A DNA stretch of 64,000 nt from an uncultured Candidatus Saccharibacteria bacterium (GCA_964401135.1 CAYNXC010000002.1:112975-176974), one strand, 5' to 3'; counted from the stretch's first letter, positions 20,695 to 53,765 are shown. The notes: a model not told the origin generated them from the letters alone. Numbers and translations are program-made.

Positions 20695-20700
20695 AGTTGG

Positions 20701-21252: not shown

Positions 21253-21375
21253 TTACGGAGGTCTCGACTGCCGCTTTCAGTCCATAAATGGAGCCTGAAA
21301 AGGCAGAGACCTCGTACATATTTCATTACTACAGGCAGCGTACTAATTATAGCAAGGTGTACAATTGTGGCAAGT

Positions 21376-21600: not shown

Positions 21601-21602
21601 TT

Positions 21603-23324: not shown

Positions 23325-23326
23325 AA

Positions 23327-23596: not shown

Positions 23597-23603
23597 ATCT
23601 CAA

Positions 23604-23783: not shown

Positions 23784-23785
23784 AG

Positions 23786-24055
23786 CTACTTCTCCGCATA
23801 GAGGCGGTTCTTAAGTTGGCGGAAATTATGGAACAGACTTTGGATGGGGACTTCAATTGTTTTGTCTCCCCAGAAGTCGCTGATAGCTGTTTCAATTCCT
23901 TCCGTCGCGGCAAACACAAAGTCCATCCTCTTGTCGCTTGTACGCTCCAAACCGACCAATTTGAATTGGAGCGTGAGCAGCGTTGCTGCCAAGCCAATAT
24001 CACTGATGAATACTTTTTGCTCTGTGCTTGCCATACTCTGATTCTTGCAAGCCAA
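23786..24055 (-). CDS. hypothetical small protein of element (strand choice tentative; alternative + ORF 23816-24067)
   Basis: co-orientation with flanking minus-strand genes. Confidence 0.3.
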   Translation of the reverse strand: MACKNQSMASTEQKVFISDIGLAATLLTLQFKLVGLERTSDKRMDFVFAATEGIETAISDFWGDKTIEVPIQSLFHNFRQLKNRLYAEK

Positions 24056-24163
24056 GTCCGTACCTAGATATCTCCATAGATACTTTCCAAAAGAGAAAAC
24101 ACTCCCAGAAATGAGAGTGTCTTTTTTACTTGTCCACAGTAGCTATTGAGTACCTATGGGTAC

Positions 24164-24871: not shown

Positions 24872-24938
24872 TTATCCAGTTTACCACAACTGGACACATT
24901 TGCTCATAGGCTTACATCGTAGTATTATGAGTATACCT

Positions 24939-25151
24939 ATGAAGAAAAGTAAGGAGGAGCAATTTTTGACTCTTCAAGAGGTCGCCAAGCGCTTGCGGGT
25001 TAGCGAGCGTTCGGTGTTTCGATATATTCACGACGGAAAGATTGAAGCCACGAAAGTGGGCTACTGGCGCATCACTGAAAGTGCTTTGGCAAAGTTTTTG
25101 AAAGACCGCTCCAATCTGAACAAGTCGCCGCGTAAGAAGTCGAAAAAGTAA
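24939..25151 (+). CDS. xis: excisionase-family HTH DNA-binding protein (MerR/Xis-like HTH_17); start at MKKSKEEQ
   Basis: LTLQEVAKRLRVSERSVFRYIHDGKIEATKVGYWRI matches excisionase/HTH_17 pattern. Confidence 0.7.
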   Translation: MKKSKEEQFLTLQEVAKRLRVSERSVFRYIHDGKIEATKVGYWRITESALAKFLKDRSNLNKSPRKKSKK

Positions 25152-25176
25152 CCTCGTTTTTTGAAATGGAAATGTA

Positions 25177-27687: not shown

Positions 27688-27689
27688 TT

Positions 27690-30113
27690 ATGCTTACCGC
27701 AGAAACAAAAAGAAAAATTGATAATGCGCGAGATATCCTCGTAGGAAAAGTGCCAGACCCGAAGGCGCAGGTGGAGCAGATTACTACGGCGCTCATCTAT
27801 AAGTTTATGGATGATATGGATATGCACTCTGCCTCTCTCCCGAAAGGTAAAGCGCAATTCTTCACTAACGGTTTTGGAAAATATGCCTGGAGCAAACTGA
27901 TGGATGCGAAACTTGGTGGGCAAGAGCGTCTGAATCTTTACGAGGAAGCGATTAGAAAGATGTCTACTAATCCACACTTACCTCAACTTTTTCGTGATGT
28001 ATTTAAGGATGCTTATCTACCTTATCGAGACCCACAAACACTTAATCTTTTCTTGAAGGAGATAAACGATTTTGAATACGACCATAGCGAGAATCTTGGT
28101 GATGCGTTTGAATACCTACTTTCTGTACTTGGCTCTCAAGGTGAGGCTGGACAATTTCGCACACCACGCCACATCATTGATTTCATTGTTGAAGTGCTTG
28201 ACCCTAAAAAAGATGAAACCATCCTCGACCCAGCGTGTGGTACGGCAGGTTTTCTAATTTCTGCATATAAACACATACTCAAGGCAAATGAAAAAAAGCG
28301 ACTTACACCAGACGAAAAAAAGCGGCTAATGAGCAATTTGGCTGGATACGATATTTCACCAGATATGGTGAAGCTCTCTCTTGTGAATATGTATCTCCAC
28401 GGTTTTCCAAGTCCGAATATTCACGAATACGATACACTCACAAGCGATGAACGTTGGGACGAGCACTTTGACGTAATGATGGCGAATCCTCCTTTTATGA
28501 CTCCGAGGGGCGGTATCCGTCCTCATAAGCGATTTATGGTGCAAGCGAATCGTGCAGAAGTCTTGTTTGTTGATTACATAATGGAACATCTCAACAGCAA
28601 GGGGCGCGCAGGTATTATTGTTCCTGAAGGTGTTATTTTTCAATCTGCTGGTGCATATAAAGAGTTGAGGCGAGCGCTTGTGGCAGATGGATTGTATGCG
28701 GTTGTATCTTTACCTGCTGGTGTCTTTAATCCTTATGCGGGAGTGAAAACCAGTATCCTATTTTTTGATAACCAACTCTCAAAGTTATCCAAGGAAGTGC
28801 TTTTTATCAAAGTACTCAATGATGGTTTTAGTTTAGGTGCACAACGTAGACCAATAGATAAAAATGATTTACCACACGCTCTCAAGGTTTTGCAGGCGCA
28901 CAAAGAGGCAATACTCAATAAGAAAAGAAGCCCTCTCAAAAAAGAAAACCTGTTTGCTTGGACAATAAGTAAAAAGAAAATTGCTGAACGTGTTGATACT
29001 AACCTTGAGGGAGAGAGATACAAACCAGTAAAGTTTGCTGAAAGATTGAAGCATCCATTAGAGGAGTTGGGTAACATTATCGAACTCGATTTTGGAACGA
29101 GGATTACTCAAAAGAATAATACTGGCAGTCTATATCCTGTTTATGGTGGAGGCGGTGAAAGTTTTAGAACCGATGACTTCAACAGGCAGGATGAGGTAGT
29201 GATTTCGAGGTTTGCTATGTCAGAAAATTGTGCGCGAGTTGTGAAGGAAAAGTTTTTCCTAATGGACTCTGGTTTTACTTACTCAATCAAGGAAGAGTTT
29301 GCTGCTAGGGCGGATAAACAGTTCATAGATTACCTAATACTCAATATGCAGGAGCGTATCTATGCCTGTGGCAGAGGGCACGCCCAAAAGAATCTTGATA
29401 CCAAGGCTTTCAAAAAGTTACTCATTCCACTTCCAACACTTGAGGAACAGAAACAAATTATTTCTGAATTAGATAGCTACCAAAAAGTGGTTGATGGTGC
29501 GAATCAAGTAATTGAACACCACAAACCATCAATTCAAATTAGCGAGTCTTGGGAACGAGCAGAACTAGGTGATATTGCCAAGATGGAGTATGGATACACA
29601 GAAACAGCAAAGATTAAGGGAGATGCTCGTTTTGTCCGTATAACAGATATCAGTAACGAAGGACACCTAAAGTCGGAAGGTGCGAAGTACGTAAACCTTA
29701 CCAAAGAGGCAAAGGCATACTTACTCAAGCGCGGGGATGTTCTTGTTGCCCGTACTGGTGCAACGTATGGCAAAACTATGATTTTCAATGAAGAATATCC
29801 AGCAGTATTTGCTTCGTTTCTTATTCGCCTCAATTTCGATACCAAAAAGATTCTCCCAGAATACTATTGGGCATTTGCTCAAACCACTGATTACTGGAAT
29901 CAAGCAAGGGCGTTAGTAACAGGCGGTGTGCAGCCGCAGTTCAATGGTAATGCAATGAAACATCTTTCTATTCCACTACCAAGTTTAGAAGTCCAAGAGC
30001 AAATTATTGCTCAAGTGAAAAATGAACAAGCACACGCTTCATCTGCGATGAAAATGGTTGAGATTTATGGAGATAAGATTAAAAATAAAATTGCCGAAAT
30101 ATGGGGCGAATAA
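27690..30113 (+). CDS. hsdMS: fused Type I R-M methyltransferase-specificity protein (HsdM ~470 aa + HsdS with two target-recognition domains)
   Basis: HsdM N-terminal domain, SAM motif DPACGTAGFL, catalytic NPPF; C-terminal two TRD blocks each ending in HsdS conserved spacer LPLPTLEEQKQI / LPLPSLEVQEQI; uninterrupted 807-aa frame. Confidence 0.85.
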   Translation: MLTAETKRKIDNARDILVGKVPDPKAQVEQITTALIYKFMDDMDMHSASLPKGKAQFFTNGFGKYAWSKLMDAKLGGQERLNLYEEAIRKMSTNPHLPQLFRDVFKDAYLPYRDPQTLNLFLKEINDFEYDHSENLGDAFEYLLSVLGSQGEAGQFRTPRHIIDFIVEVLDPKKDETILDPACGTAGFLISAYKHILKANEKKRLTPDEKKRLMSNLAGYDISPDMVKLSLVNMYLHGFPSPNIHEYDTLTSDERWDEHFDVMMANPPFMTPRGGIRPHKRFMVQANRAEVLFVDYIMEHLNSKGRAGIIVPEGVIFQSAGAYKELRRALVADGLYAVVSLPAGVFNPYAGVKTSILFFDNQLSKLSKEVLFIKVLNDGFSLGAQRRPIDKNDLPHALKVLQAHKEAILNKKRSPLKKENLFAWTISKKKIAERVDTNLEGERYKPVKFAERLKHPLEELGNIIELDFGTRITQKNNTGSLYPVYGGGGESFRTDDFNRQDEVVISRFAMSENCARVVKEKFFLMDSGFTYSIKEEFAARADKQFIDYLILNMQERIYACGRGHAQKNLDTKAFKKLLIPLPTLEEQKQIISELDSYQKVVDGANQVIEHHKPSIQISESWERAELGDIAKMEYGYTETAKIKGDARFVRITDISNEGHLKSEGAKYVNLTKEAKAYLLKRGDVLVARTGATYGKTMIFNEEYPAVFASFLIRLNFDTKKILPEYYWAFAQTTDYWNQARALVTGGVQPQFNGNAMKHLSIPLPSLEVQEQIIAQVKNEQAHASSAMKMVEIYGDKIKNKIAEIWGE

Positions 30114-31459
30114 CCAAGAACATTATGAACCTCACCACTGAACAAAAGAAGGAACTGGAATCTTACTTGACGACATATCGAGACGTGCCAATTGTCGAGA
30201 ATGACGGTATGCAAGAATCATACGCATCCTTTGATGATAAGCGTGTTGCTGCAACAGTTGAGATAAAGAAGCTGGTTGATGATTTTCTGCGCGGCGGTCT
30301 TTCTGTTGCCGAGTTCAAGGAACAAAGCGATGCAATGAGTCGCAAGTTTTCATATTGGGGGTTCAAAGGTTTTAGCGGACAGATGCAGCTCAACCAGTAC
30401 GCAAACAATATCGAAGACGCAGAACAAGAGCAGCGTCTTAAGGAAGCTATTGCATTGCCCGCAACTCTCGATGAGGCGGTAGCGAAAATAAACACTTTCG
30501 CGGAGTATATGCGGGAGCTGAAAACAAAAACCGATAATCCCAAGAGTATCCCGCGTATCAACCAGTCTTTTATGCTCTCGTACTTCTGGGAGATGCAAAG
30601 CCCTGAACTCTATCCTGTGTACTTCGGTTCAATGAAGAACGTGTTGGAAAACCTGGGCTTTGACTTCAAGAGCCAAGAGACACCAGGAGACGAGTACCGA
30701 TACTTTGCAGAGATTTGCTACGCAGTTCGTGAGTTCTTTGAACAGAGCGGAATGCAGGAAACACACCCGATATGGTACGTCGAACACGTTATCTGGCACT
30801 ACTTCAAAAAGCAGAATACGGAGATTGAGACAGAGGTAAAACAAGCAGTGCCAAGCAAAATCAGAATCGGAAAAACACCAGAAGAAAGTTGGACACCACC
30901 TATCATTGGCGACCTTGAACAATTGGCGCTCAATCAAGAAACCGAATGGTCAAAATTGCGTGGGCTAAAACCTGAAAAAGCGTTTGAGACCAAGCTACGT
31001 TATCTGTTTACCATTCTTGGATACAACACCACCGAGCTTGGACAAGGTAGAGGCAGAGAGCCAGACGGTATTACTATCTCCAATGACGGTAACGCTGGCT
31101 ATTACGCCATCATCTACGATGCAAAAGCACGAGAAAAGGATTACTCAATCGGTACACAAGACCGAGAGATTGTTGAATACATCAAAAACAAACAGCGTGA
31201 GTTGCAGCGCCAGCGCGTTGATAAGGTTTCTTTCTTGATTGTTTCTTCGGAGTTCACTAACAGTCCTTCACTTGAAAACTCACTCAAAGACATCTACCGA
31301 GCAACGCGAGTACCAGTGATTCTCGTACGGGCAAAAGACCTGTTGCGTATCGTCGAGCGCAAACTATCGAATGCAGATATAGACCACGTGCAGCTCGAAG
31401 ACCTGTTCCTTGAGACAGGCGTACTCACCGCAGATAAAATTGTGGACGTACTTGGATAA
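30101..31459 (+). CDS. hypothetical protein with C-terminal Mrr-like PD-(D/E)xK restriction-endonuclease fold and unrecognised ~280-aa N-terminal domain; overlaps hsdMS stop (alternative start 30125)
   Basis: C-terminal ILGYNTTELGQGRGREPDGITIS...YAIIYDAKAREK fits Mrr_cat PD...(D/E)xK pattern; N-terminal region has no recognisable motif. Confidence 0.6.
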   Translation: MGRITKNIMNLTTEQKKELESYLTTYRDVPIVENDGMQESYASFDDKRVAATVEIKKLVDDFLRGGLSVAEFKEQSDAMSRKFSYWGFKGFSGQMQLNQYANNIEDAEQEQRLKEAIALPATLDEAVAKINTFAEYMRELKTKTDNPKSIPRINQSFMLSYFWEMQSPELYPVYFGSMKNVLENLGFDFKSQETPGDEYRYFAEICYAVREFFEQSGMQETHPIWYVEHVIWHYFKKQNTEIETEVKQAVPSKIRIGKTPEESWTPPIIGDLEQLALNQETEWSKLRGLKPEKAFETKLRYLFTILGYNTTELGQGRGREPDGITISNDGNAGYYAIIYDAKAREKDYSIGTQDREIVEYIKNKQRELQRQRVDKVSFLIVSSEFTNSPSLENSLKDIYRATRVPVILVRAKDLLRIVERKLSNADIDHVQLEDLFLETGVLTADKIVDVLG

Positions 31460-31460
31460 T

Positions 31461-32273
31461 ATGAAAAAGAAAACCGCCATCATACTCATAGTTGTTGCCG
31501 CTATCATCGCCTTCATCGCGGGGGCGTGGGTTTTTATGGGCGACTATTACGAAGCTGATGAGACTGCGTACATTCCTGAAAGTTGCAACGTGCTTGCGTT
31601 CGCCGTCAACGGTTATCTTGCTACATACACCAGCGACACCACAGCAGAAGAACTCGAAATGGATGCTGTTTCGTCGTGGAATATCGCCGATGGCATCCGC
31701 CACGCAAAAGATTACCCGAACGTCAAAGCAATCCTACTTTCCGTTGATTCAAGTGGCGGAGACCCCACCACTGGTGAAGAGATAGCAAACGCTCTCAAAG
31801 CCCTAGAATTGCCTTCTGTAGCGGTTATCCGAAGCATCGGAGCATCTGCTGCATATTGGGCTGCTACAGGAGCGGATACAGTCTTTGCATCTCGTGTTTC
31901 TGATGTTGGCAGTATCGGCGTTACCGCTTCTTATCTTGATGAGACCGTTAAGAATGCAAAGGATGGCTACACACTTGTAGAACTATCATCAGCACCACAC
32001 AAAGATGCGGGTAGCCCGAACCGCGCTCTCACTGCGACAGAAAAAGCAGCTATCGTTTCCGACCTCAAGAAGATACACGAAGTATTTGTTGATGATGTTG
32101 CTGCGAATCGAAACCTTGAACGTGAGAAAGTGGCACAGCTTGCGAACGGACTCACCTATCTCGGCGTTGACGCGCTTGAGTACGGCTTGGTAGATAAACT
32201 CGGCGACTTCACTGCCGCCACTGACTACATCGCAGAACAGATTGGCGAGCCAGTGGAGTTGTGTTGGTACTAG
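31461..32273 (+). CDS. sppA: signal peptide peptidase SppA-like (S49 / ClpP-fold) with N-terminal TM anchor
   Basis: TM helix AIILIVVAAIIAFIAG, S49 core ILLSVDSSGGDP...VIRSIGASAAYWAA. Confidence 0.75.
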   Translation: MKKKTAIILIVVAAIIAFIAGAWVFMGDYYEADETAYIPESCNVLAFAVNGYLATYTSDTTAEELEMDAVSSWNIADGIRHAKDYPNVKAILLSVDSSGGDPTTGEEIANALKALELPSVAVIRSIGASAAYWAATGADTVFASRVSDVGSIGVTASYLDETVKNAKDGYTLVELSSAPHKDAGSPNRALTATEKAAIVSDLKKIHEVFVDDVAANRNLEREKVAQLANGLTYLGVDALEYGLVDKLGDFTAATDYIAEQIGEPVELCWY

Positions 32274-32280
32274 AAATAAA

Positions 32281-32790
32281 ATGAATTGGCGTGAGAAGGT
32301 ACTAAAGAAACATAAGAAAGAAATTATCCTGTCGGCAGCGTTCGCTCTTACGCTTGCACTGGCAACTGCACTTTGGCACTACTTCACAGGAAAGAGTTTT
32401 GAGTGGCAGTCCATCACTCCGATAGAGCAGCCAGGACTGTTGCCGCGTCTCTTTTACAGCGCACTCGTCTTTGCTGTGCCTGGTTGGTTTCTGTACCACA
32501 AGCTCAAGTTTTGGAAGTTTCTATACGAACCTTATCGTGGAACTGGGCGGCGTGGTTATCGTGAGTATAAGAAACTCAAAGCCGCCATCTGGGGTCTCCT
32601 CATTCTTCTGATGTATTTTGTTATTGTGCCGTTTGTTGTAGATATTCTAAACACCATCATCTCGTTCTTCTTTAATCTCTACGTTCTCGTGCTGTATCTT
32701 GTCCCTTCACTTGCTATCTCGCTGCTTGTCTGTGGGGTTGGATTATTCATTTACAAAAAACACAATGCTCTCAAAAGAAGCACTCAATGA
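32281..32790 (+). CDS. hypothetical 4-TM membrane protein downstream of sppA
   Basis: four hydrophobic helices; basic loops; position analogous to small membrane partner genes of sppA operons. Confidence 0.5.
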   Translation: MNWREKVLKKHKKEIILSAAFALTLALATALWHYFTGKSFEWQSITPIEQPGLLPRLFYSALVFAVPGWFLYHKLKFWKFLYEPYRGTGRRGYREYKKLKAAIWGLLILLMYFVIVPFVVDILNTIISFFFNLYVLVLYLVPSLAISLLVCGVGLFIYKKHNALKRSTQ

Positions 32791-32950
32791 GTTCAAGAAA
32801 ATATGGCGGGAGGAGAAGGGTGAAGATGTATCCGACGAGCTTGCCGTTGAAGAAGCCATAAACCTCCTTACGTTGTTCAGCGCCATCTATCGCCCTGTGA
32901 AGCAGGAATGGGTAGATGAATACGACCGCACCCACAAGGTTAAAGAGTAA
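32765..32950 (+). CDS. hypothetical small protein (61 aa), last gene of element cargo array
   Basis: ORF overlapping the previous gene end by 26 nt; no motif. Confidence 0.3.
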   Translation: MLSKEALNEFKKIWREEKGEDVSDELAVEEAINLLTLFSAIYRPVKQEWVDEYDRTHKVKE

Positions 32951-33299: not shown

Positions 33300-33590
33300 G
33301 AAACGGTAGGATATGGGAATAGTTCAAGCCAGTTGATAGTTCGTAGTTCCTCCCGCCAAGCCAGCCACATTGTATGAATCGGAAAGGTTGCCTAGCCCGC
33401 TCGCTACTGGAGACCGTCGGGCCGGCCAAGCACGACCTTGCAAAGGTTGGACTCTGGCCACACGACGAACAGAGAGACGGGAAGTGCATGGATGGTACAG
33501 AGCTCTACGACCACCTCATTGTTCCAGCATAGGGTTCGAGATTTGAAACTATGGTCATGGCTTACGGAGTGAGGGAGCCGAGTAGGAAAG
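33300..33590 (+). ncRNA. candidate structured ncRNA, possibly a reduced RNase P RNA; coordinates and strand approximate
   Basis: ORF-poor GC-rich segment with ordered short matches to bacterial RNase P conserved regions: GGAAAGgttgcc, ccacacgacgAACAGAGAGac, cagcAUAGGGuUCgag, AUGGCUUAC; not verifiable without a covariance-model search. Confidence 0.25.
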
Positions 33591-33984
33591 AGGCAAGAGC
33601 TTTCTTTGCTTTCTCTGACGATCCGTGTTGCTTTGTAAACGCTTCGGTACCGTCCTTACCGCAAAGTCCAAGGATTGCGTCTTCTCCACCAGGGTGTTTA
33701 CTGATCCAGTCGGTGAGGTCGTACACATTTCCTCCTACAGCTGTGTAGCAGCTCGAAGTATCTGCATGCGCGGCTACATCTGCCATCGTAAAGATGACCC
33801 CGATATTAAGCTCATCCGCTACTTGGTCTGAGCTCGTTGCTACTTGTGTGCCTGGGGCACTATTTTGTCTATAGCTAATAAACGCAATTCCTCCGACGAC
33901 CAGCACTCCGGCAATATATAGATATAGTCTGTCCATATTCATATTTTTTTTATGCCAATGACTACTCGTAGCGCAGAGTGCCAA
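33562..33984 (-). CDS. cytochrome b5-like heme-binding domain protein with N-terminal TM anchor
   Basis: TM LYLYIAGVLVVGGIAFI; Cyt-b5 motif DLTDWISKHPGGEDAILGLCGKDGTEAF. Confidence 0.7.
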   Translation of the reverse strand: MALCATSSHWHKKNMNMDRLYLYIAGVLVVGGIAFISYRQNSAPGTQVATSSDQVADELNIGVIFTMADVAAHADTSSCYTAVGGNVYDLTDWISKHPGGEDAILGLCGKDGTEAFTKQHGSSEKAKKALASFLLGSLTP

Positions 33985-43947: not shown

Positions 43948-46900
43948 ATGGAGATAGAATCGGTAGGTATTTGCTGCGGTTCTTCAACCGTAGCTGGAGT
44001 GAGCTTAGATGGAAGATTTGTTGAATCTAAGCTACGGCACAATGGAGATGTTGCTGATACAGCCCAAGAAATTCTCAATATTCTTTCACCCTCCCCAAAT
44101 GCAAAAATTGTTATCACGGGACGGGCGCGTCAAGCTTTTTCCAACTATCCCTATGTGACGGAGCCAGAAGCTCTTCAACGAGCTCTCAAAGAGTTCGTAT
44201 CAGAGGAGTATCCTGAAGCTGTCGTCAGCTTTGGTGGACAGACGATTCTTGCGTATGAAGTTGATACGCAAGGGTATATTGTTCGTTCACATTCGTTCAA
44301 CAAGTGTGGTAGTGGGACTGGAGAATTCATGATCCAGCAGATTGGCAGGCTCGGCTTTACTTCGCTTACCCATGCGATGGATGCCGCAAACGATCCTTTG
44401 TCGTACGCCAATCCGTATGTACCAGCGAGTCGTTGTAGTGTATTCTGCAAATCTGACTGTACTCATGCAGCAAACGAAGGTAAGGCAAGCACAAGCCAGA
44501 TCACAGCCGGTCTATGCCTTATGGTTGCTCAAAAAATCGCAGAACTTGCAGGTAAGATAGAAGCAAGATGTCTCTGGCTTATTGGAGGAGGCTCGGCACT
44601 TGGACCAGTACGGTCATATCTTGAGGATCTCGGATTTCGAGTCACTATACCTCCTCATGCAGAACATTTTGAAGCGTGGGGAGCCGCACTCCTTGGTGCT
44701 GACGATGACGAAAGAGCGTGCCAGAAACAATTTATGGCAAGTGAAAAAAGCGATTCTTTTCCTCGATTGCCGCCACTAGAAAATTTTTCACACCTCGTTA
44801 CCTACAAAGAGGCACTGCGTGGGGAAGCAGAAGCTAACGATCAGTGTATCCTCTCAATTGATGTTGGATCAACCACGACTAAGGCTGCATTACTGCGACT
44901 TGATGACTTAAGTCTCCTTGCTTCTCACTATGGTTATACACATGGGATGCCTCACAAGGCAATGCTTGAGTGCTTTGCCGAACTTGACAAATTGATTACT
45001 GTTCCGATTCAGATTGTCGGTATCAATGTAACTGGTTCGGGGCGTTATCTTGCCGAAGCATTTTTGACCGATTATGCTCTACAAGATAAAAATGCCGCGC
45101 AGATCTCTGTTGTGAATGAGATCACTTGTCATGCAACTGCTGCCGAACGTTTGAATCCAGGAGTATCATGTGTATTAGAGATTGGCGGACAGGACGCGAA
45201 ATACACATACCTAGAATCTGGAGTGCCACTTGATTTCTGCATGAATGAAGCATGTTCTGCCGGGACGGGAAGCTTTCTTGCTGAGGTTGCAAAAGAATTG
45301 TTTCAGATCCAGGATCCTAATAAGATCGCGCCAACTGCTCTTGAGGGTAAGAGGCCGATCAAGTTTGGAGAACAATGCTCCGCATTCATTGAGAGCGACA
45401 TCAATTCAGCGCTTCGCGAAGGTGCTTTACAGGAAGATGTTATGGCTGGATTGTGTTATTCTGTCTGCTACAACTATGTCAATCGTGTTGTTGGCAATCG
45501 TCCGATCAGAGGAACCATTTCTCTCCAAGGTGGCACTGCCTATAATCCTGCATTCTGTCTTGCAATGGCGGGAGTCCTGTCTCAGAGCGCGATATTAGGG
45601 AAGGACGATCGTATTATTGTATCGCGCGAAGCGGGGCTCATGGGAGTGATAGGCGGAGCAGCTTTCCTTGTTGAAAAAATTCGACAAGGAGGCTATAAGC
45701 TTATACATACGACACTTGCCACCCTTCTCACCAAAGAACTCAAAGAAGCTTCGAGTTTCGAATGCAGAGGATGCACATACAAATGTTCCATAAAGCGATT
45801 CGAGATTACGAGTGAGGGAAAATCTACAAAAGTTCCTTTTGGTGGATTCTGTCGCAAGTACGATACAATTCGCCGCGGAAGTAAGCCATTTTCGTCGGAT
45901 GATTATGACTTTACTGCACTACGAGACCAGATGTTGTTTGGAGTCTATTCTAACCTCGGCCAATCGCTTTCTAGTACAGCTCCGTCCATTGGAGTTCTTG
46001 GAAATTTCTTTGAGCTCAAGTATCTGCCTCTCTTCTCAACGATCTTCGCTAGCCTTGGTATGAGGACTGTGTTGGCGGATGCTGTGGATCAAAATGGTCT
46101 ACAACGCCAAAGCGGTTCCTATTGTTGGCCAGTTGGACGATCCCACGGACTTATGGAGAATCTTATACAAAAAAATCCAGATTTCTTCTGGATGCCACAT
46201 GTCCATACTGTGGAGTCCTCTGATATTACGCGAGATCAATGCTGCCCACTTGCGCAAGGCACTCCGTTCTTGCTCAAGACGGCTTTCCCAGAAATTCCTC
46301 CACATAAGATTATGGATCCGTATCTGTGTATCACCGATGATATCTCCGATCTCCTCACAGCATTTACTCCCCTCGCAAAACAAATAGGAGTGGGGCGAAG
46401 AAAGCTGAAGAAGGCGATAGAGGCGGGTATTGAAGCTCAGCGATGTTTTACACTAGCGTGCAAACAGAAGGGCCGCGAACTTCTTGAAGAACTTGCGCAA
46501 TGTCCTGGAGAAATAGCTTTTGTTATGGTCGGAAGACCATATAATGCTCTCTCAAACCACTTAGGAAGTAATAAGGGTCTTTCTCGTAAAATTGCTTCGA
46601 TGGGTATCCGCGTCATTCCACTCGATTTTCTTCCTCTGGATGAGGTTGAAGATGAGCCGGATATGTACTGGTCAGCGGGGCAAGACATATTACGCGCGGC
46701 GCGATTCATTGCTCAACGGAAAGAATTGTATGGAGTATTCCTTACCAACTTCAGTTGTGGACCAGATTCTTTCCTTGTCACTAAGTATCGTCGCTATCTC
46801 GATGGTAAGCCATCTCTTATTCTTGAGTTCGATGCACATACGGCGAATGCCGGATTTGACACGAGAATTGAAGCATTTCATGAAATCGTGCAAAGCTTCA

Positions 46901-48261
46901 TCCGCGTAAGTGCTTCGGGACACAGGCCAGAGAAGATCCTTGCTTTTGATGGCTCTCCTTTGGAGACAGATCCAGAGGATATCAGAGGCCAGAAGATGAG
47001 AGTCGTTATTCCTGACATGGGAAGCTTCTATTCACAGGCGCTTTCCGCTACCTTAGAAAGTTTCGGAGTTAGGACAACACTGTTGCCTCAACCGGATCAT
47101 GCCACTCTCGCTTTGGGGCGTCGACATGCAAGTTGTAAAGAATGTCTGCCCTACAATCTGACGATTGGGAGTTTCCTTCATTATCTGGAGCATGAGCGTG
47201 AGTCTGGAGAATCCACCGCACTCTTTATGCCAGCTGGATCAGGGCCATGTCGTTTTGGGCAGTATAGTATTCACACACGGCTTCTACTCCATGAGTTGGG
47301 ATATTCCGATGTCACAGTACTCTCGCCTTCGGATAGTACCGCGTATGCAGGACTTGGCCCAAGCTTTCGGGAGAGAGCATGGATCGCTCTCGTCGCTGGC
47401 TCTCTCGTTGAGAACATTAGTTGTGCTCTTCAAACTCTTGCAGTGGATGTTGAGGAAGCCAAGACGATACTCCATACTTCTTGGGGTAGAATTGTAGAGA
47501 AAATACGCGGGGGAGTACAGATGAAGAACATATCAAGTTTCCTCTCTCTCCTCCAAAAAGAGGCTCAGATCCTTAAGACAATCCCACTCCATAACTCTCT
47601 GGACAAGGTGCCGAAGGTACTTATCACAGGTGAGATCTATGTACGCCTCTCTGACTTTACCACCTTGCCGATTGTCCGTTATCTTGGACAGCATGGCATC
47701 GTAGCAGTCAAGGAACCTGCTACAAACTGGTTGAAGTATGTTGATTATATTTATCAGCATGCGTATGTCTTACAAAAACAAAGTATGAAGGCGCGCTTCC
47801 TCCATTTTGTTAAGAGGAAGGTACAAGTACTCTACGAAAGGCTTATCACAGACGCTCTCTCTATGTCCGGACTATGTGCAGATACAAGCGGGAATATAGA
47901 AGAGATTATAAAATGGGCTCAGCCTTATCTCTCCGATCGTCTATGGGGAGAGGCTATCCTTACTATAGGCAGTGCACGATTTGAATCTCTCGGACGATAC
48001 GCGGGAGTTGTTGTGGTCGGCCCGTTTGGCTGTATGCCAACACGGCTTGCAAGCGGCATCCTAACCTACACAATGTCGGTAGAGGATAAAGTCGCATCTG
48101 ATCCTCATTGTATCCCTGAAGCTTTGAGAAAATCATGTTCTCACTGTCCCTTCATCACCCTTGAGACTGACGGAGTTGCACTCTCCCCAATCACCTGTTC
48201 GTCACTTGACGCATTTTGTGTCGTAGCGAAAAGGGTACACGGAGTAATGCAGAAATCGTGA
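43948..48261 (+). CDS. 1437-aa CoA-substrate-specific enzyme activase-family fusion: two ASKHA (BadF/BadG/BcrA/BcrD) ATPase domains + DUF2229 / 2-hydroxyacyl-CoA dehydratase (HgdB/FldB)-like C-terminal region
   Basis: two acetate/sugar-kinase-like modules (ILSIDVGSTTTKAALL; LEIGGQDAKYTYLE; CSAGTGSFLAEVAKEL), then Cys-rich dehydratase-like region. Confidence 0.75.
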   Translation: MEIESVGICCGSSTVAGVSLDGRFVESKLRHNGDVADTAQEILNILSPSPNAKIVITGRARQAFSNYPYVTEPEALQRALKEFVSEEYPEAVVSFGGQTILAYEVDTQGYIVRSHSFNKCGSGTGEFMIQQIGRLGFTSLTHAMDAANDPLSYANPYVPASRCSVFCKSDCTHAANEGKASTSQITAGLCLMVAQKIAELAGKIEARCLWLIGGGSALGPVRSYLEDLGFRVTIPPHAEHFEAWGAALLGADDDERACQKQFMASEKSDSFPRLPPLENFSHLVTYKEALRGEAEANDQCILSIDVGSTTTKAALLRLDDLSLLASHYGYTHGMPHKAMLECFAELDKLITVPIQIVGINVTGSGRYLAEAFLTDYALQDKNAAQISVVNEITCHATAAERLNPGVSCVLEIGGQDAKYTYLESGVPLDFCMNEACSAGTGSFLAEVAKELFQIQDPNKIAPTALEGKRPIKFGEQCSAFIESDINSALREGALQEDVMAGLCYSVCYNYVNRVVGNRPIRGTISLQGGTAYNPAFCLAMAGVLSQSAILGKDDRIIVSREAGLMGVIGGAAFLVEKIRQGGYKLIHTTLATLLTKELKEASSFECRGCTYKCSIKRFEITSEGKSTKVPFGGFCRKYDTIRRGSKPFSSDDYDFTALRDQMLFGVYSNLGQSLSSTAPSIGVLGNFFELKYLPLFSTIFASLGMRTVLADAVDQNGLQRQSGSYCWPVGRSHGLMENLIQKNPDFFWMPHVHTVESSDITRDQCCPLAQGTPFLLKTAFPEIPPHKIMDPYLCITDDISDLLTAFTPLAKQIGVGRRKLKKAIEAGIEAQRCFTLACKQKGRELLEELAQCPGEIAFVMVGRPYNALSNHLGSNKGLSRKIASMGIRVIPLDFLPLDEVEDEPDMYWSAGQDILRAARFIAQRKELYGVFLTNFSCGPDSFLVTKYRRYLDGKPSLILEFDAHTANAGFDTRIEAFHEIVQSFIRVSASGHRPEKILAFDGSPLETDPEDIRGQKMRVVIPDMGSFYSQALSATLESFGVRTTLLPQPDHATLALGRRHASCKECLPYNLTIGSFLHYLEHERESGESTALFMPAGSGPCRFGQYSIHTRLLLHELGYSDVTVLSPSDSTAYAGLGPSFRERAWIALVAGSLVENISCALQTLAVDVEEAKTILHTSWGRIVEKIRGGVQMKNISSFLSLLQKEAQILKTIPLHNSLDKVPKVLITGEIYVRLSDFTTLPIVRYLGQHGIVAVKEPATNWLKYVDYIYQHAYVLQKQSMKARFLHFVKRKVQVLYERLITDALSMSGLCADTSGNIEEIIKWAQPYLSDRLWGEAILTIGSARFESLGRYAGVVVVGPFGCMPTRLASGILTYTMSVEDKVASDPHCIPEALRKSCSHCPFITLETDGVALSPITCSSLDAFCVVAKRVHGVMQKS

Positions 48262-48267
48262 TATATT

Positions 48268-48309
48268 CCCGTTCCATTCTCATAATTTGAGAGTGGGACG
48301 GGTTTTTTT
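48268..48309 (+). terminator. intrinsic terminator after the 1437-aa gene
   Basis: 14-bp stem cccgttccattctc/gagagtgggacggg (two G-U), loop ataattt, then ttttttt. Confidence 0.75.
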
Positions 48310-48343
48310 ATTTTTCATTATTTTGTGCTACAATCCGCACACA

Positions 48344-48724
48344 ATGAAGTCATGGATTGCCATCTTTGTGCTCTCTCTAATGCTTGCAGTGAGTGTAGTG
48401 GGAGTACTGCACAGTAGCGAGTCTGGGCACATGGGGCACGGCTCCGGGTGCGTTTTTAATTTCGGCGGGCAGGAGTTATGTATTACTGATATTGCGGCTA
48501 CTCTCTCTGAAATACGAGATATCCTACCTACTGCTCTAGTATTTTTTGCAGCATCTCTTTCTATCGCATTTATCTATACATCTTTCCTCCGGGCACCACA
48601 GTCTCATCCAATTCGTGGATATACTCGTACATGGCTCACGCGGCTCCGAGGTCTTTGTCCGCCGCACCATCTCTCTCTCGCATTTTCATCAGGAGTAGTT
48701 CATCCGAAACTCTTTCTTTCCTAG
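48344..48724 (+). CDS. small membrane protein with His/Met-rich motif (SGHMGHGSG), possible metal-binding
   Basis: extended -10 TGcTACAAT upstream; signal/TM then HMGHGSGC; ORF-track start 48287 lies inside the terminator so it is rejected. Confidence 0.5.
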   Translation: MKSWIAIFVLSLMLAVSVVGVLHSSESGHMGHGSGCVFNFGGQELCITDIAATLSEIRDILPTALVFFAASLSIAFIYTSFLRAPQSHPIRGYTRTWLTRLRGLCPPHHLSLAFSSGVVHPKLFLS

Positions 48725-48755
48725 CCACGATTCTTTATCAGCTAGGTAAAAAAGT

Positions 48756-50102
48756 ATGTCTTCACACACACAAGAGCACACACTCCACGTGCAGGGTATG
48801 CACTGTCGTGGATGCGAGGTGCTCATAGAAAGGAAGTTTGGAGAAATTGATGGTATAAGTTCTGTGCGGGCACATCAGCATCGGGGTACCGTCTCTTTTC
48901 GCAGTTCTCGCGATATCCCCTTAGATGTTCTCAATGCAGCGATTACTGCCGATGGTTACCATGTCACTCACGAACCACTTACTGTCGTACGACAAAAGAA
49001 TACGGCGCTTGATTACATGGAGATCGGAGCGGTCGCGATGATTCTCTTCTCTTCGTACCTGCTCTTCTCAAAACTTGGTCTCATTCCTGAAGTGTCTCTA
49101 TCGGAGAATATGAGCTACGGGGTCATCTTTATTATTGGCCTCGTTGCCGCCTTCTCTACTTGTATGGCAGTCTCAGGAGGATTACTCCTTGCCATCAGTG
49201 CCCGTGCAGCAGAAAAAAATCCGCACGCAACGCGCCGTGAACGATTGGTCCCACACCTCTACTTCAACATCGGCCGCATCATCTCCTACACTTTTTTAGG
49301 AGGAGCTATTGGAGCACTCGGTTCTGTCATTGCACTCTCGCCTGCAATCAATGGGATTGTTACGGTGCTTGCCTCCCTTGTTATGATCGTGCTTGGATTC
49401 CAAATTCTGAATCTCTTCCCTCGCCTCTCGTATCTGATTCCCAAAATGCCCAAGTTACTTGGGCACCGCATCCACGCCTTGGCAGGTCGCGATGGGGGTC
49501 GGGGATCATTCTTATTGGGAGCCGGAACCTTTTTCCTCCCCTGCGGGTTTACCCAGGCACTCCAGCTCTATGTGCTTGCACAAGGGTCGGCACTCACCGG
49601 AGCACTCACGATGCTTACCTTTGCACTCGGTACTCTACCCGCCTTTCTTGCTGTTGGAGCAGTATCACAAGCTGAAAGTGGCACATTCCGTCGTTACTTA
49701 CTCAAAACGGCGGGAGTGCTCGCGCTTACTCTTGGTATCGTCAACACGAGTGCAGGATTTACTCTCTTAGGAGTTGGCGGCATTACAAAGGGTACTGGTA
49801 ATGCTGTTACGATAACAGAGGAAGGTGGTACGCAAGTTGTTGAGATGAAGGTGCGTGGTCTCTCGTACTCTCCCTCACAATTTGTTGTCAAAAAAGGCGT
49901 TCCTGTTGAATGGCGCATTGATGGCACTGGTGCCGCAGGGTGCGCACGAGTCATTGTTGCCCCTAAGCTTGGTCTCTCCACCTACTTGAAGGCGGACGGC
50001 CCGACTATTGTTACCTTCACTCCAGAACAAGAGGGGACTATAGAGTTCAGTTGTAGTATGGGGATGACAACTCGTGGTGCAAAGTTTATCGTTAAATCAT
50101 AA
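48756..50102 (+). CDS. HMA (CxxC) domain + DsbD/CcdA-like transmembrane domain + C-terminal cupredoxin-like domain protein
   Basis: GMHCRGC metal-binding motif, 6 TM region with paired Cys, C-terminal beta-sandwich with Cys/His/Met candidates. Confidence 0.65.
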
Positions 50103-50107
50103 TCTGT

Positions 50108-52282
50108 ATGAAAACTATTCAATTCCGCATCCCCGATATGCACTGTGCTTCGTGCGTGACTAATAATGAGTCTGCACTCAAAGCACTTTCCGGGGTGCAG
50201 TCAGCATCAGTCAACTTTGCAACACGAGCGGCAACGGTTGAATATAATGAGGCGCAGGTATCAGAAGAAAAGCTCCATGAAGCAGTCATACAGAATGGGT
50301 ACCATGTAGCGCCTCTCCACAATGATGGAGCGAGTTCACATGAGCATCACAATGAGGTGAAGAGTGCACGGTTCCGCGCATTTTCTGCTATCCTTCTTGC
50401 TCTCCCGCCACTTATCCTCTCAATGGGAGCTATCCGTTTTGGCACGCTCTTTGTCGGTTTAGATCTGAGCATCTGGATCCAAACACTACTCTCTTCATTC
50501 GTTATCCTGATTATTGGAAGCGAGTTCCATATCCGTATGTTACGACAAGCACGGAGATTCCGCGCCGATATGGATACACTCATCTCTGTTGGTACTCTCT
50601 CTGCACTCTTGCTCTCGCTCTGGTCACTCACACAGGGGGATAGCGAGTCGCTCTACTTTGAGACGGGGGCAGTAATCACAGCTCTTATTCTCCTCGGGCG
50701 CTACTTTGAAGCGCTCTCGCGTGGGAGGGCGAGTGCGGCAATAGAAAAGTTGATGGCACTTGGCGCAAAAACTGCTCGTGTGCTTCGCGACGGTGAGGAG
50801 CGTGACATCCCGATAGAAGAGATACACATTGGAGATCAGATCCGCGTGCGACCAGGAGAAAAAATTCCAGTAGATGGGATTATTGTTGATGGAGTCTCCA
50901 GCGTTGATGAGTCTGCCTTGACGGGCGAGAGCATGCCTGTTGAGAAAAAAAATGGTGACACAGTGCTCGGTGCAAGCGTCAACCAATATGGTTCCTTCGT
51001 AGTACGAGCAGAAAAGATTGGTGCAGATTCAGTACTCGGTCAGATGGTAACAATGGTGGCAGAAGCGCAGAGTGCCAAGGCGCCGATACAAAAACTTGCC
51101 GATCGTGTCTCGGGCATCTTTGTTCCGATAGTCATGCTCATTGCACTGATTACCGCGGTACTCTGGTTTATAGTTACCAGAGATGTAGGAGCATCACTCA
51201 TCCCCGCAGTTGCCGTATTGGTTATTGCATGCCCGTGCGCGCTTGGGTTAGCCACTCCTACCGCAATTATGGTGGGGACAGGCACCGGTGCACGACGGGG
51301 GATACTGATTAAAAATGGAGAGTCATTGGAGAAGGGGAAAAATATAGACACAGTAGTCTTTGACAAAACAGGTACCTTAACTGAAGGTCATCCTGGAGTC
51401 ACCAATGTAGATTGTGCTACAGGAGTACAAGAAGCAGAGATGCTTGCACTTGCGGCAAGTCTAGAGATACTTTCGGAACATCCGCTTGCTCGCGCTGTTG
51501 TAGAGTATGCAAAGACGCACCACATTACCTTACATACAGCGACAGAGTTTGCGAGTATTCCTGGTCGTGGTGTACGGGGGAACATAGGGCCTCATACGAT
51601 CTCTGTTACGAGTGTCAGAGATGCGGAGACGCGGGGAGTCAATTTTTCTGCGTATCGTGAGCAGATACGACTCCGTGAGACAGAGGCAAAGACTGTTCTC
51701 GTTGTCGTTCGTGGAGAAGAGTACCTCGGGTCAATCTCTGTTGCAGACACAGTGAAGCCAGAATCTCACCGTGCTATTGCCGCGCTACAGAAGCGAGGCA
51801 TCCGTACCGTGATGATAACGGGCGATAATCAATTGACGGCCGAAGCGATTGCGCGAGCGGTTGGTATTACTGAAGTGTTTGCAGAAGTACTCCCACAAGA
51901 TAAGCGCAATAAGGTACAGGAACTCCAACAGAAAGGTCGGCATGTTGCTTTTGTCGGTGACGGTATTAATGACGCGCCCGCGCTCGCTCAATCTGATCTG
52001 GGGATTGCTTTAGGTACAGGGACTGACATTGCCATTGAGACCGGTGATATTGTCTTGGTAAAAGGGAGCCCTCTGAAGGCGCTTGAGGGGCTCATGCTCT
52101 CACAAAAGACCTTCCGCATTATCAAGCAAAATCTCTTTTGGGCTTTTGCTTACAATGTAGCAGCGATACCTCTTGCGGCACTCGGTTTTCTCAATCCTAT
52201 GATCGCTGCCGCAGCAATGGCCTTCTCATCTATCTCTGTCATTCTCAATTCACTTCGTCTCCGTATCCCTGTGTTATACTAG
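50108..52282 (+). CDS. copA: copper-translocating P1B-type ATPase
   Basis: N-terminal HMA MHCASC, TM CPC motif ([12 protein letters not shown]), DKTGTLT phosphorylation site, GDGINDAP. Confidence 0.9.
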
Positions 52283-52321
52283 TTCTTAGGCCGTATTACT
52301 CACATTAACACAGACATTACT

Positions 52322-52441
52322 ATGATGGGATTCGGATATGGGGGTGGATTTGGACCTCTTCTCTCACTCCTCTCGAGCATCGTGTGGCTCGTGGCTGGCA
52401 TTCTCCTTATTATCTGGCTGTGGAAGCAAATCAGCAAGTAG
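52322..52441 (+). CDS. 39-aa Gly-zipper hydrophobic peptide (MMGFGYGGGFGPLLSLLSSIVWLVAGILLIIWLWKQISK), below ORF-track cutoff
   Basis: in-frame ATG..TAG immediately after copA and before a terminator hairpin. Confidence 0.35.
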   Translation: MMGFGYGGGFGPLLSLLSSIVWLVAGILLIIWLWKQISK

Positions 52442-52456
52442 CCCTTGCCAGAAAAG

Positions 52457-52488
52457 AAAATCCCTCCGCTTAAAGCGGAGGGATTTTA
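52457..52488 (+). terminator. intrinsic terminator closing copper module
   Basis: stem aaaatccctccgc/gcggagggatttt with ttaa loop and T-run. Confidence 0.7.
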
Positions 52489-52544
52489 GTGAATTATAAG
52501 GTTGTCCACCGTCTTTTTTGAACTCTACCCTGTATAATAGAGGC

Positions 52545-53765
52545 ATGGCACTACGAGTGCTAATGTTCGGCTGGGAGTTTCCTCCCCGGTCAAGTGGCGG
52601 CTTGGGCGTGGCGTGTTTTGGATTGACTCGAGCACTTACGCAAGATGGAGTGAAGGTTCATTTTGTACTTCCTAAGCATATGGATCCGGAAGTGACTTTT
52701 ATGGATTTTTCTTTTGCTGACATTCCCAACGTTGTTGCTACAGGAGTAAACTCATTGCTCTATCCCTATGTGACCGAAGGAAGCTACCTCTCCTCGTACT
52801 ACACAGTAGGTGGTGGGGGTGGTATGTACGGTCCCTCACTTTTTGAAGAGGTACTGCTCTACGCGTCCAAGGCGGAAGAGATAGCCAGTAATTCATCATT
52901 TGATGTTATTCATGCACATGATTGGCTCTCCTTTCTCGCGGGGCTTGAGGCAAAACGGGTGAGCGGGAAGCCTCTAGTGGTTCATGTTCACGCAACTGAG
53001 TTTGATCGGAGTGGTGGGAACAGCGCCAATCCTCGCGTGTATGAGATCGAGAAGAAAGGGATGCAGGGAGCAGACAAGGTTGTGGCAGTCTCCTTATGGA
53101 CCAAACAAGTAATCATAGAGAAGTACGGTATTACTCCAGAAAAAATAGAAGTAGTACACAATGGGGTTGAGGCGAAAGACTTCAGAGCACTCCCATCAGA
53201 CTTAACCGCACTCAAGCACGCAGGTAAAAAAATCGTGCTCTTCCATGGGCGTATTACTCTACAGAAGGGCCCAGACTATTTTATCCGTACTGCGAAGCGC
53301 GTGCTTGAATATTATCCTGATGCACTTTTCATCGTGTCTGGTATTGGTGATATGCTCCCACAGATGATACGCGAGACAGTGCGACTTGGTATCTCCGACA
53401 AAGTATTCTTTGTTGGTGCCTTATGGGATGACGAACGTGATCGCGTGTATCAGGCGGCAGATGTAGTGCTGATGCCATCGGTCTCAGAGCCATTTGGTAT
53501 CGTGCCACTAGAGGCGCTTACAAATGGAGCCCCGGTACTTATTTCAAAACAATCTGGTGTCGCAGAGGTCCTCTCTCATGCCTTAAAGAGTGACTTTTGG
53601 GACATTGATGAAATGGCAAATAAGATTGTGGTGATGCTCCGGAATGATTCATTACAAGCGACCTTGCGTAAAAATGGTGGTAAAGAAGTTGAGACCATCA
53701 CTTGGTCTAAGGCGGCGCAGAAGCTCCTTGGGGTGTATCAGTCGCTCGCACCTAAATTTACATAA
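52545..53765 (+). CDS. glgA: glycogen/alpha-glucan synthase-like glycosyltransferase (GT4/GT5-like, K-x-GGL-type motif)
   Basis: MALRVLMFGWEFPPRSSGGLGVAC N-terminus, C-terminal GT-B E..E region; GAGG RBS. Confidence 0.7.
   Translation: MALRVLMFGWEFPPRSSGGLGVACFGLTRALTQDGVKVHFVLPKHMDPEVTFMDFSFADIPNVVATGVNSLLYPYVTEGSYLSSYYTVGGGGGMYGPSLFEEVLLYASKAEEIASNSSFDVIHAHDWLSFLAGLEAKRVSGKPLVVHVHATEFDRSGGNSANPRVYEIEKKGMQGADKVVAVSLWTKQVIIEKYGITPEKIEVVHNGVEAKDFRALPSDLTALKHAGKKIVLFHGRITLQKGPDYFIRTAKRVLEYYPDALFIVSGIGDMLPQMIRETVRLGISDKVFFVGALWDDERDRVYQAADVVLMPSVSEPFGIVPLEALTNGAPVLISKQSGVAEVLSHALKSDFWDIDEMANKIVVMLRNDSLQATLRKNGGKEVETITWSKAAQKLLGVYQSLAPKFT

Follow-up and report, generated by a model that had tools for sequence, protein, structure and literature searches.

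A copper locus of a Candidatus Saccharibacteria bacterium pairs CopA with a fusion of HMA, DsbD_2, and CupA-like domains

RESULTS

Four genes at the copper locus

Four open reading frames (ORFs) lie on the plus strand within positions 48344-52441 of a 64,000-nucleotide (nt) stretch of DNA from an uncultured Candidatus Saccharibacteria bacterium (GCA_964401135.1 CAYNXC010000002.1:112975-176974), called the window here and numbered from its first letter. In order, they are ORF1, ORF2, copA, and an ORF of 39 amino acids (aa), and two very stable hairpins, at 48268-48302 and 52457-52487, enclose them. A first-pass annotation of the window had described a copper module with these four elements, and we found each of them where it had been placed, with domain content and a copA pairing that agree with that description. 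The locus is very probably a four-gene copper-defense operon, either constitutively promoted or remotely regulated, of a kind common in bacteria of the candidate phyla radiation (CPR) and in DPANN archaea. While its CopA is a pump of an ordinary, already known type, the arrangement of ORF2 and two undescribed, recurrent families of small genes are new.

Domain architecture of ORF2

ORF2 (48756-50102; it and its features are on the plus strand) encodes a 448-aa protein in which an HMA domain, a DsbD_2 membrane core with seven transmembrane (TM) helices, and a CupA-like domain follow one another. Three Pfam domains each exceeded the gathering score, HMA at residues 9 to 69, DsbD_2 at residues 124 to 328, and Cupredoxin_1 at residues 356 to 441, and the three-part division made in the first-pass annotation thus stands at the level of Pfam. 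The HMA domain (48780-48962; PF00403, E 1e-6, 29.5 bits against a cutoff of 24.8) contains the N-terminal CxxC that had been noted, as Cys17-x-x-Cys20 within a GMHCRGC motif, and both cysteines were invariant in 56 sequences. This domain gave CopZ-type matches in NCBIfam and the PDB, along with weak NCBIfam matches to MerTP/MerP. An AlphaFold2 model of the whole protein (predicted local distance difference test, 81.9) has an HMA fold with the element order E-H-E-E-H-E, seven long helices, and a beta-barrel.

The loops between the helices contain 5, 6, and 3 Lys and Arg residues on one side of the membrane and 0, 0, and 0 on the other, and no signal peptide was found ahead of the HMA domain. 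From this charge asymmetry and the missing signal peptide, the topology is strongly predicted to be a cytoplasmic HMA domain, seven helices across the membrane, and a C-terminal, CupA-type domain that faces outward.

Most ORF2 homologs are about 580 aa long and carry two tandem CupA-like domains, while a single one is present in the window protein and in its closest relatives. A reading of ORF2 as a truncated gene or pseudogene was rejected, as single-cupredoxin forms make up a natural subgroup that includes P0002, P0003, and many loci labeled Woese- or Nanoarchaeota. Homologs of ORF2 are named "sulfite exporter TauE/SafE family protein" by NCBI and JGI; among the Pfam and NCBIfam matches of ORF2 at E ≤ 1 there was no TauE/SafE model, and the name is probably a propagated misannotation.

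The membrane core

The core (49005-49769) consists of a linker helix, TM0 (residues 84 to 106), and six DsbD_2 helices. It matched PF13386 with 135.2 bits (E 3.6e-39) over model positions 2 to 198 of 199. Across 71 sequences at 40 to 56% identity, 25 core residues were invariant, including Cys136 in the S-T-C motif of TM1, Met210 in TM3, and Cys263 in the L-P-C-G-F-T-Q motif of TM4. In the AlphaFold2 model, Cys136 is in the helix spanning residues 121 to 154 and Cys263 is in the helix spanning residues 249 to 274, and the cysteines of the six-helix, 3+3 arrangement are present.

The match to DsbD proper was not significant (E 0.024), and a profile search with the core returned no PDB sequence at E ≤ 10. 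Foldseek ranked CcdA (5VKV) first among PDB structures, as a weak match (E 0.4, TM score 0.36 to 0.41), and PF02683 (DsbD_TM) was also recorded for many ORF2 relatives. Of the earlier description of a DsbD/CcdA-like thiol-transfer core, the family assignment therefore holds at the level of PF13386, while thiol transfer is a candidate role; we consider a role as a metal conduit at least as likely.

The C-terminal CupA-type domain

The C-terminal domain (residues 356 to 441; 49821-50078) matched PF13473 (E 5.9e-9), in keeping with the cupredoxin-like fold that had been proposed. In a phmmer search of the PDB, its best matches were CupA (2MRY/4F2E, E 5.6e-8) and the metal-binding domain (MBD) of pneumococcal CopA (4F2F, E 1e-6), and a lone Cys and a CxMxM motif align residue for residue with both. 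Four residues, Cys396, Cys433, Met435, and Met437, were invariant in 56 homologs, as were, among others, structural Gly, Pro, Phe, and Tyr residues, with Trp386 and Asp389 nearly so. These homologs had no invariant His, and thus they lack the His/Cys/His/Met set of type 1 blue copper sites. By its ligands, the domain would bind Cu(I) in the manner of a CupA-type chaperone rather than act in blue-copper electron transfer, and "cupredoxin" is apt for the fold only.

CupA has a bis-thiolate, high-affinity Cu(I) site (S1) and a Met-rich site (S2); it is membrane anchored on the cytoplasmic side and known from only a few streptococci, and in vitro its cysteines are able to reduce Cu(II) (PMC7558416). 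The ORF2 domain has the cupredoxin-like beta-barrel and the Cys...Cys-x-Met-x-Met ligands of S1 and S2. It follows seven TM helices, is predicted to be outside, and stands next to a CopA whose MBD is an HMA domain. Thus, the CupA fold and site are shared, but ORF2 is no orthologue of CupA in role.

CopA

The copA gene (50108-52282, plus strand) starts 5 nt past the ORF2 stop and encodes 724 aa with one N-terminal HMA domain. The protein scored 594 bits against TIGR01511 (cutoff, 397) and 657 bits against TIGR01525, and it contains the full P1B-1 signature: CPC (375), N-x6-YN-x4-P (675), P-x6-M-xx-SS-x5-N (697), and DKTGT (419), together with the CxxC of the HMA domain (13), TGES, and GDGIND. 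The identification of this gene as copA was therefore correct, and its product is predicted to export Cu(I) from the cytoplasm as an ordinary P1B-1 pump.

Module boundaries and promoter

The hairpin at 48268-48302 (plus strand; a 15-bp stem followed by U7, -26.6 kcal/mol, z -8.3) is the intrinsic terminator of the preceding 1437-aa gene and the upstream boundary of the module. The hairpin at 52457-52487 (plus strand; -23.2 kcal/mol, z -5.7), with an A-tract on one side and a U-tract on the other, has the shape of a bidirectional terminator and is the downstream boundary. The terminator scan reported this second hairpin on the minus strand, and just 4 U residues follow it on the plus strand, so the stable structure that had been taken to close the module is present, but its claim to be a terminator in that direction is weaker; of both hairpins, the one at 48268-48302 is the stronger terminator.

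An extended -10 element, TGcTACAAT, is present at 48326-48334 (plus strand) with no -35 element, and a simple scan for -35/-10 promoters, which relies on both, did not list it. We take it as a supported promoter because it is the sole conserved upstream stretch in a diverged allele of the locus, represented by the sequences L003 and L004. Both have TGcTATAAT, followed upstream by unrelated DNA and a different neighboring gene, which bears out the proposal that the module has its own promoter. The ATG of ORF1 is 9 nt past the -10 box, so the ORF1 mRNA is predicted to be leaderless or nearly so. A similar layout occurs at the glycosyltransferase gene downstream of the module (region 52531-52547), where a TG-preceded TATAAT at 52533-52538 is 6 nt before the likely ATG at 52545, too close to accommodate a Shine-Dalgarno sequence; the host organism may commonly use leaderless transcripts.

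ORF1 and other small genes in its position

ORF1 (48344-48724, plus strand) encodes 126 aa from its ATG and is the small membrane protein with SGHMGHGSG that had been reported. It has TM segments at residues 4 to 22 and 60 to 80, an outside loop with H-x-x-H and Cys36...Cys46 (Cys-x9-Cys), and a basic cytoplasmic tail that ends in FSSGVVHPKLF. The longer start chosen by gene callers (143 or 145 aa) was rejected, since it falls within the terminator of the preceding gene and has no conserved counterpart in L003.

A word-indexed search with ORF1 returned just two close matches, at 100% and 82% identity. Compared with the 82% allele, there were 24 synonymous and 23 nonsynonymous codon changes, and the nucleotide differences numbered 13, 9, and 34 at codon positions 1, 2, and 3, respectively. 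Because divergence is biased to third positions, we regard ORF1 as a translated gene, and the pattern points to purifying selection. The wider ORF1 family was visible only to exhaustive phmmer searches and to hidden Markov models (HMMs) built from related loci. By phmmer, relatives at 33 to 40% identity were found, of which P0127 and P0128 end in RGI(I/L)HPK. HMMs built without the window sequence matched ORF1 at E values from 2.7e-9 to 4.9e-18, and in the leave-one-out test with relatives only, ORF1 was the sole match among 839 window ORFs (E 2.7e-9). In the family alignment, an N-terminal TM segment is followed by an outside, His/Met-rich segment with Cys-x7-12-Cys, a second TM segment, and a basic cytoplasmic tail with the consensus FSxGILHPK[IL][YF], a plan that ORF1 shares. 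No Pfam or NCBIfam model matched ORF1, DUF2933 included, and family members are named only "hypothetical"; ORF1 is thus a member of an undescribed family that recurs in CPR genomes.

Of 76 loci, the position directly upstream of the ORF2 homolog was held by the ORF1 family in 12, by a second undescribed and unrelated family that we call RRE-tail in 10, and by nothing or another gene in 40. RRE-tail proteins (loci L044, L064, L067, L068, L071, L073, L078, L079, L084, and L086) are 120 to 150 aa long, with an N-terminal anchor, a Met/His/Cys-rich segment (e.g., CxxxC or CC), a PP motif, and C termini such as ...VRRE or ...LKE; neither of the members that were scanned, from L084 and L078, had a Pfam match.

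The two nearest relatives of ORF2 (L001 and L002; 61 to 63% identity) have another His-rich peptide in place of ORF1 and no Gly-rich peptide. This peptide of 45 to 50 aa ends in KHKHGGCCH; the L001 copy matches DUF2933 weakly and the L002 copy has no Pfam match, and a DUF2933 peptide also adjoins copA in L069. The same two loci encode a membrane-anchored protein of 297 to 300 aa (L001 1999-3347, L002 75-1123) with the motif CCGNSTHFPDCNHGMAM and a C-terminal GGGGC, for which the L001 copy gave no Pfam match, and in L001 only, an 88-aa protein with two TM segments is encoded upstream of the ORF2 homolog. The upstream genes of L001 and L002 are another uncharacterized set of copper-locus genes. 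Judged by this turnover, the small genes are interchangeable accessories and not fixed parts of the module.

The 39-aa peptide

The last ORF (52322-52441, plus strand) encodes a single-pass peptide that begins MMGFGYGGGFG. Its Gly- and aromatic-rich N terminus is outside, a TM helix spans residues 13 to 31, and its C terminus, WKQISK, is inside. It had been called a Gly-zipper peptide; GYGGGFG is indeed present, but the Gly/aromatic run precedes the TM helix and is not within it. Near-identical contigs have the ORF annotated as a gene, and in a leave-one-out HMM search built from relatives it was the sole match among the 839 window ORFs (E 9.6e-7). Peptides of this Gly-rich TM class occur in 12 of 80 related loci (13 matches, against 1 in a reversed-sequence control); some are short, such as the 51-aa peptide of L015, which ends in LWKQIKKKR, and others have a SHOCT tail. 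The window peptide has no Pfam match and no SHOCT domain (PF09851), ending 8 residues past the TM helix. The leave-one-out results thus show both small ORFs to be conserved in relatives at the level of families.

Distribution and gene neighborhood of ORF2

More than 4,218 of 8,000 candidates scored were homologs of ORF2 at E ≤ 0.001, and those with names belong to Patescibacteria/CPR; overall, CPR bacteria and DPANN archaea account for almost all homologs. For the neighborhood analysis we sampled 80 loci from species-representative genomes, many of them labeled Woese- or Nanoarchaeota. In 45 of the 64 loci with enough downstream sequence, copA was directly downstream of the ORF2 homolog on the same strand, and in 5 more loci it was upstream; the comparative survey thus shows that the placement of this architecture beside copA is conserved. 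The first 26 loci supplied 150 neighboring proteins for a Pfam survey, in which HMA (15), ArsR-type helix-turn-helix (HTH) (5), additional Cupredoxin_1 (4), and DsbA/Thioredoxin_4 (3) recurred. The 15 HMA neighbors are stand-alone CopZ proteins, often encoded between the ORF2 homolog and copA. A CsoR-like gene was near the ORF2 homolog in 18 of the 80 loci.

In the literature on PF13386, on DsbD_2 and copper, on COG2836, and on Patescibacteria and copper, we found no study of the CupA-fused architecture, and a note on COG2836 (PMC4938975) was the sole item of relevance. ORF2 is abundant, uncharacterized, and misnamed; its parts are known, and the way in which they are fused is new.

Regulation

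A CsoR HMM matched none of the 839 window ORFs (best E 0.17), and no CopY (Penicillinase_R) or MerR domain was found in the ten regulator-sized window ORFs to which that scan was confined, where the only HTH domain was HTH_17 at 24840-25151, within an integrated element. The first-pass annotation was right that the window has no visible regulator of the CopY, CsoR, or CueR type; its treatment of this absence as a distinctive feature did not hold up. A missing linked regulator is unremarkable: CsoR is likewise absent within about 8 kb in 62 of the 80 related loci, and the window covers only 64 kb, while a 672-kb contig carries a homolog nearly identical (99%) to ORF2.

The suggested search for a CsoR or CopY operator in the 48.3-kb promoter found none: no significant dyad, inverted repeat, or operator was detected in 48240-48360, and inspection of the promoter by eye showed neither a TACAnnTGTA cop box nor a GC-rich palindrome of the CsoR type. 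An imperfect 8-bp dyad seen by eye, TTTTGTGC-N8-GCACACAA (7 of 8 positions), spans the -10 box; it is reduced to 5 of 8 positions in the L003 allele and was rejected.

Surrounding DNA

The L003 and L004 sequences come from two independent assemblies. Alignment of window positions 48320-49139 with L003 976-1796 and L004 359-943 revealed a sharp step in identity: the Lnb_N gene is 86 to 88.5% and ORF1 about 85% identical to the window at the nucleotide level, and from about position 48712, in the last codons of ORF1, one 1-nt indel is the sole difference in the spacer, with 100% identity over the first 384 nt of ORF2. The step suggests a recent recombination event in which lineages with about 87% identity elsewhere exchanged a segment with ORF2 and possibly copA. 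In the window, a 1437-aa BcrAD_BadFG/DUF2229 protein resembling CoA-enzyme activases is encoded at 43948-48261, between the Lnb_N gene and ORF1. L003 lacks this gene (region 900-1000), and there Lnb_N and ORF1 are divergent neighbors about 40 bp apart, so the comparison indicates a 4.4-kb insertion or deletion directly upstream of the copper promoter.

Farther away, 19022-32800 looks like an integrated mobile element. Its GC content is 0.41 to 0.44 over about 20 to 30 kb (0.46 at 30 to 32 kb), against 0.48 to 0.50 in the flanks. A tRNA-Gln gene (19022-19095) is overlapped by the end of a gene for a large serine recombinase (19033-20694, minus strand), and the element further encodes a Prim-Pol/AAA_25 primase-helicase (21603-23324, minus strand), an excisionase-like HTH_17 protein (24840-25151), a type I-like restriction-modification system with an R subunit and a fused M+S subunit (25177-30113), and a protein with a FokI-type cleavage domain (30101-31459). 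The gene at 33562-33984 (minus strand) encodes 140 aa, in which an N-terminal TM helix is combined with a cytochrome b5-like heme-binding domain (PF00173, E 3.9e-20); such a protein is unexpected in an apparent CPR-type genome.

DISCUSSION

To our knowledge, copper handling in CPR bacteria and DPANN archaea, organisms with minimal genomes, no periplasm, and an often episymbiotic life, is essentially unstudied. Because ORF2 homologs are coupled with copA, CopZ, and CsoR, and because the related COG2836 proteins belong to the predicted CsoR regulon of gut Firmicutes (PMC4938975), we link ORF2 to copper export, and we tentatively favor a relay of Cu(I) through three thiol pairs beside CopA, an idea we judge somewhat likelier to be wrong than right. 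On this model, ORF2 would act as a conduit or acceptor for Cu(I), lined with thiols: Cu(I) would pass by ligand exchange from the cytoplasmic HMA domain to the intramembrane Cys136 and Cys263 (perhaps with Met210) and on to the CupA-like site outside, and exported Cu(I) would be kept bound at the outer face of a cell without a periplasm. In many relatives, the HMA site could receive its Cu(I) from a separate CopZ. The outside loop of ORF1 and the Gly-rich N terminus of the 39-aa peptide would be on the same face, probably as accessory partners.

We prefer this reading because two of the three ORF2 modules are dedicated Cu(I)-chaperone folds, because the core is far closer to PF13386 (3.6e-39) than to DsbD proper (0.024), and because of the ties of PF13386 to metal transport: we take it to be a UreH-like family, with UreH proteins as founding members. 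Some of these have been reported to mediate nickel transport (PMC2667541). Several points weigh against a metal relay. The transport step itself is purely something we infer, and the outside location of the CupA-like domain is a prediction. A secondary-type core of six TM helices has no obvious energy source for uphill export of Cu(I), and one or two external sites are no sink unless copper is passed on. The link between UreH and PF13386 is our presumption. Pneumococcal CupA faces the cytoplasm (PMC7558416).

A further group of observations, some of which also count against metal transfer by the core, speaks for an electron (thiol-disulfide) relay as in DsbD, CcdA, and ScsB, in which the core would carry reducing equivalents outward, Cys396/Cys433 and the ORF1 cysteine pair would be kept reduced in order to bind the Cu(I) expelled by CopA or to reduce Cu(II), and the HMA domain would be a copper-sensing or docking module. 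The core is of the DsbD superfamily and has one invariant cysteine each in TM1 and TM4, the exact hallmark of DsbD/CcdA electron transporters, PF02683 is recorded in many relatives, and CcdA is the first-ranked solved fold for the core, though a weak one. There is a cysteine pair in each of three compartments, as in DsbD alpha, beta, and gamma, and DsbA/thioredoxin-fold genes (DsbA/Thioredoxin_4) are near the module in 3 of 26 loci. ScsB/ScsC are a precedent for a copper-induced, DsbD-like reductase that serves Cu(I)-binding thiol proteins of the periplasm (PMC10907172, PMC3322552, PMC8900818), and Cu(II) can be reduced by CupA cysteines in vitro (PMC7558416). On the other hand, neither the HMA fold nor the cupredoxin fold is a known module of thiol-disulfide relays, and a DsbD core receives electrons straight from thioredoxin, with no need for a fused cytoplasmic domain. 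Moreover, neither the DsbD match (E 0.024) nor the CcdA match (E 0.4) is significant, with no PDB match for the core profile at E ≤ 10. The invariant Met and Thr/Gln residues around the core cysteine pair also fit an electron relay poorly, as does the TM1 motif, S-T-C-x-A-V, which lacks what we take to be the Pro-Cys context of CcdA and DsbD. We hold the electron relay to be the main rival of the Cu(I) relay, doubtful but a substantial contender.

Two other schemes fare worse. Cu(I) could be captured outside by the CupA-like domain and passed inward through the TM cysteine pair to the HMA domain and CopZ, with CopA handling the surplus. The geometry is that of MerP (an outside HMA domain), the TM cysteine pair of MerT, and the cytoplasmic NmerA, the ORF2 HMA domain has its weak MerTP/MerP matches in NCBIfam, and UreH-type relatives are importers (PMC2667541). 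Such import is very improbable given the tight coupling to an exporter-type CopA, the presence in 18 of 80 loci of CsoR, which derepresses under copper excess, and the membership of COG2836 in a predicted CsoR regulon (PMC4938975), since copper import under excess would be senseless; moreover, no cuproenzyme gene was found in the window. Alternatively, the core could be a passive anchor that places the HMA domain near the entrance of CopA and the CupA-like domain near its exit, with the small ORFs dispensable or nonfunctional. CupA is itself merely a membrane-anchored chaperone (PMC7558416), and the small genes are swapped freely (12, 10, and 40 of 76 loci, with DUF2933 peptides instead in L001 and L069). 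A mere anchor, however, would not retain 25 invariant core residues, including Cys136, Cys263, Met210, and LPCGFTQ, and the purifying selection on ORF1 and the conservation of its family likewise make this scheme improbable.

The Cu(I) relay can also be put more boldly: ORF2 would represent a new, CPR/DPANN-wide class of ATP-independent copper transporter in which a DsbD/CcdA scaffold has been repurposed for metal, and the ORF1 family would be its dedicated outer-face partner or a copper sensor. We regard this extended version as rather unlikely. In lineages without a linked CsoR, the ORF1 family might regulate through its conserved cytoplasmic GILHPK tail.

Whichever way these proteins work, the ORF2-copA pair is kept in thousands of CPR and DPANN organisms under a misleading "sulfite exporter" name, and three families can now be better annotated, those of ORF2, of ORF1, and of the Gly-rich peptides. 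If either the Cu(I) or the electron relay is true, a DsbD/CcdA-type scaffold and a CupA-type site have been recombined into one polypeptide, and the CupA paradigm, so far described only in a few streptococci, would gain a version outside the cell and span two domains of life. The locus would then offer a compact, testable system for the fate of Cu(I) after its release by a P1B pump in a single-membrane cell, and it bears on whether a DsbD-type scaffold can move metal rather than electrons.

Comparison with known systems

DsbD, CcdA, and ScsB share with ORF2 a core related at the level of the Pfam clan, the TM1 and TM4 cysteines, and flanking soluble domains with cysteine pairs, and ScsB/ScsC are linked to copper, as is the ORF2 module. 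Their flanking domains are thioredoxin or Ig-like, whereas those of ORF2 are metal-chaperone folds, and the cysteine motifs differ. In MerT/MerP and MerTP, metal moves between an HMA domain, a membrane cysteine pair, and a second soluble thiol site, as proposed for ORF2, but the membrane fold is unrelated, the HMA domain has the opposite orientation, the direction is import, and no merA is present here. UreH-type nickel transporters, presumably members of PF13386, lack the HMA and cupredoxin fusions of ORF2.

Among the small proteins, the DUF2933 peptides share the position of ORF1 in L001, but ORF1 is longer and has two TM segments and its own conserved tail. The 39-aa peptide matches only the N-terminal Gly-rich and TM part of the SHOCT proteins in related loci.

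The front end of ORF2 has a counterpart in COG2836 of Firmicutes (HMA, DsbD_2, and DUF2318), which is in a predicted CsoR regulon (PMC4938975); these proteins have the same HMA and DsbD_2 domains and the same association with copA and CsoR as ORF2, but they end in DUF2318 where ORF2 has a CupA-type cupredoxin domain. That domain shares its fold and Cu(I) ligands with Streptococcus pneumoniae CupA and the N-terminal domain of pneumococcal CopA (4F2E/2MRY and 4F2F). CupA is a single-TM protein that faces the cytoplasm, whereas the ORF2 domain is a C-terminal fusion to a seven-TM protein and is predicted to be outside, and the CopA of the window has a classical HMA domain in place of the cupredoxin MBD of its pneumococcal counterpart. 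Finally, while CupA has been described in only a few streptococci, the CupA-like domain of ORF2 is spread across CPR bacteria and DPANN archaea and is often duplicated in its relatives.

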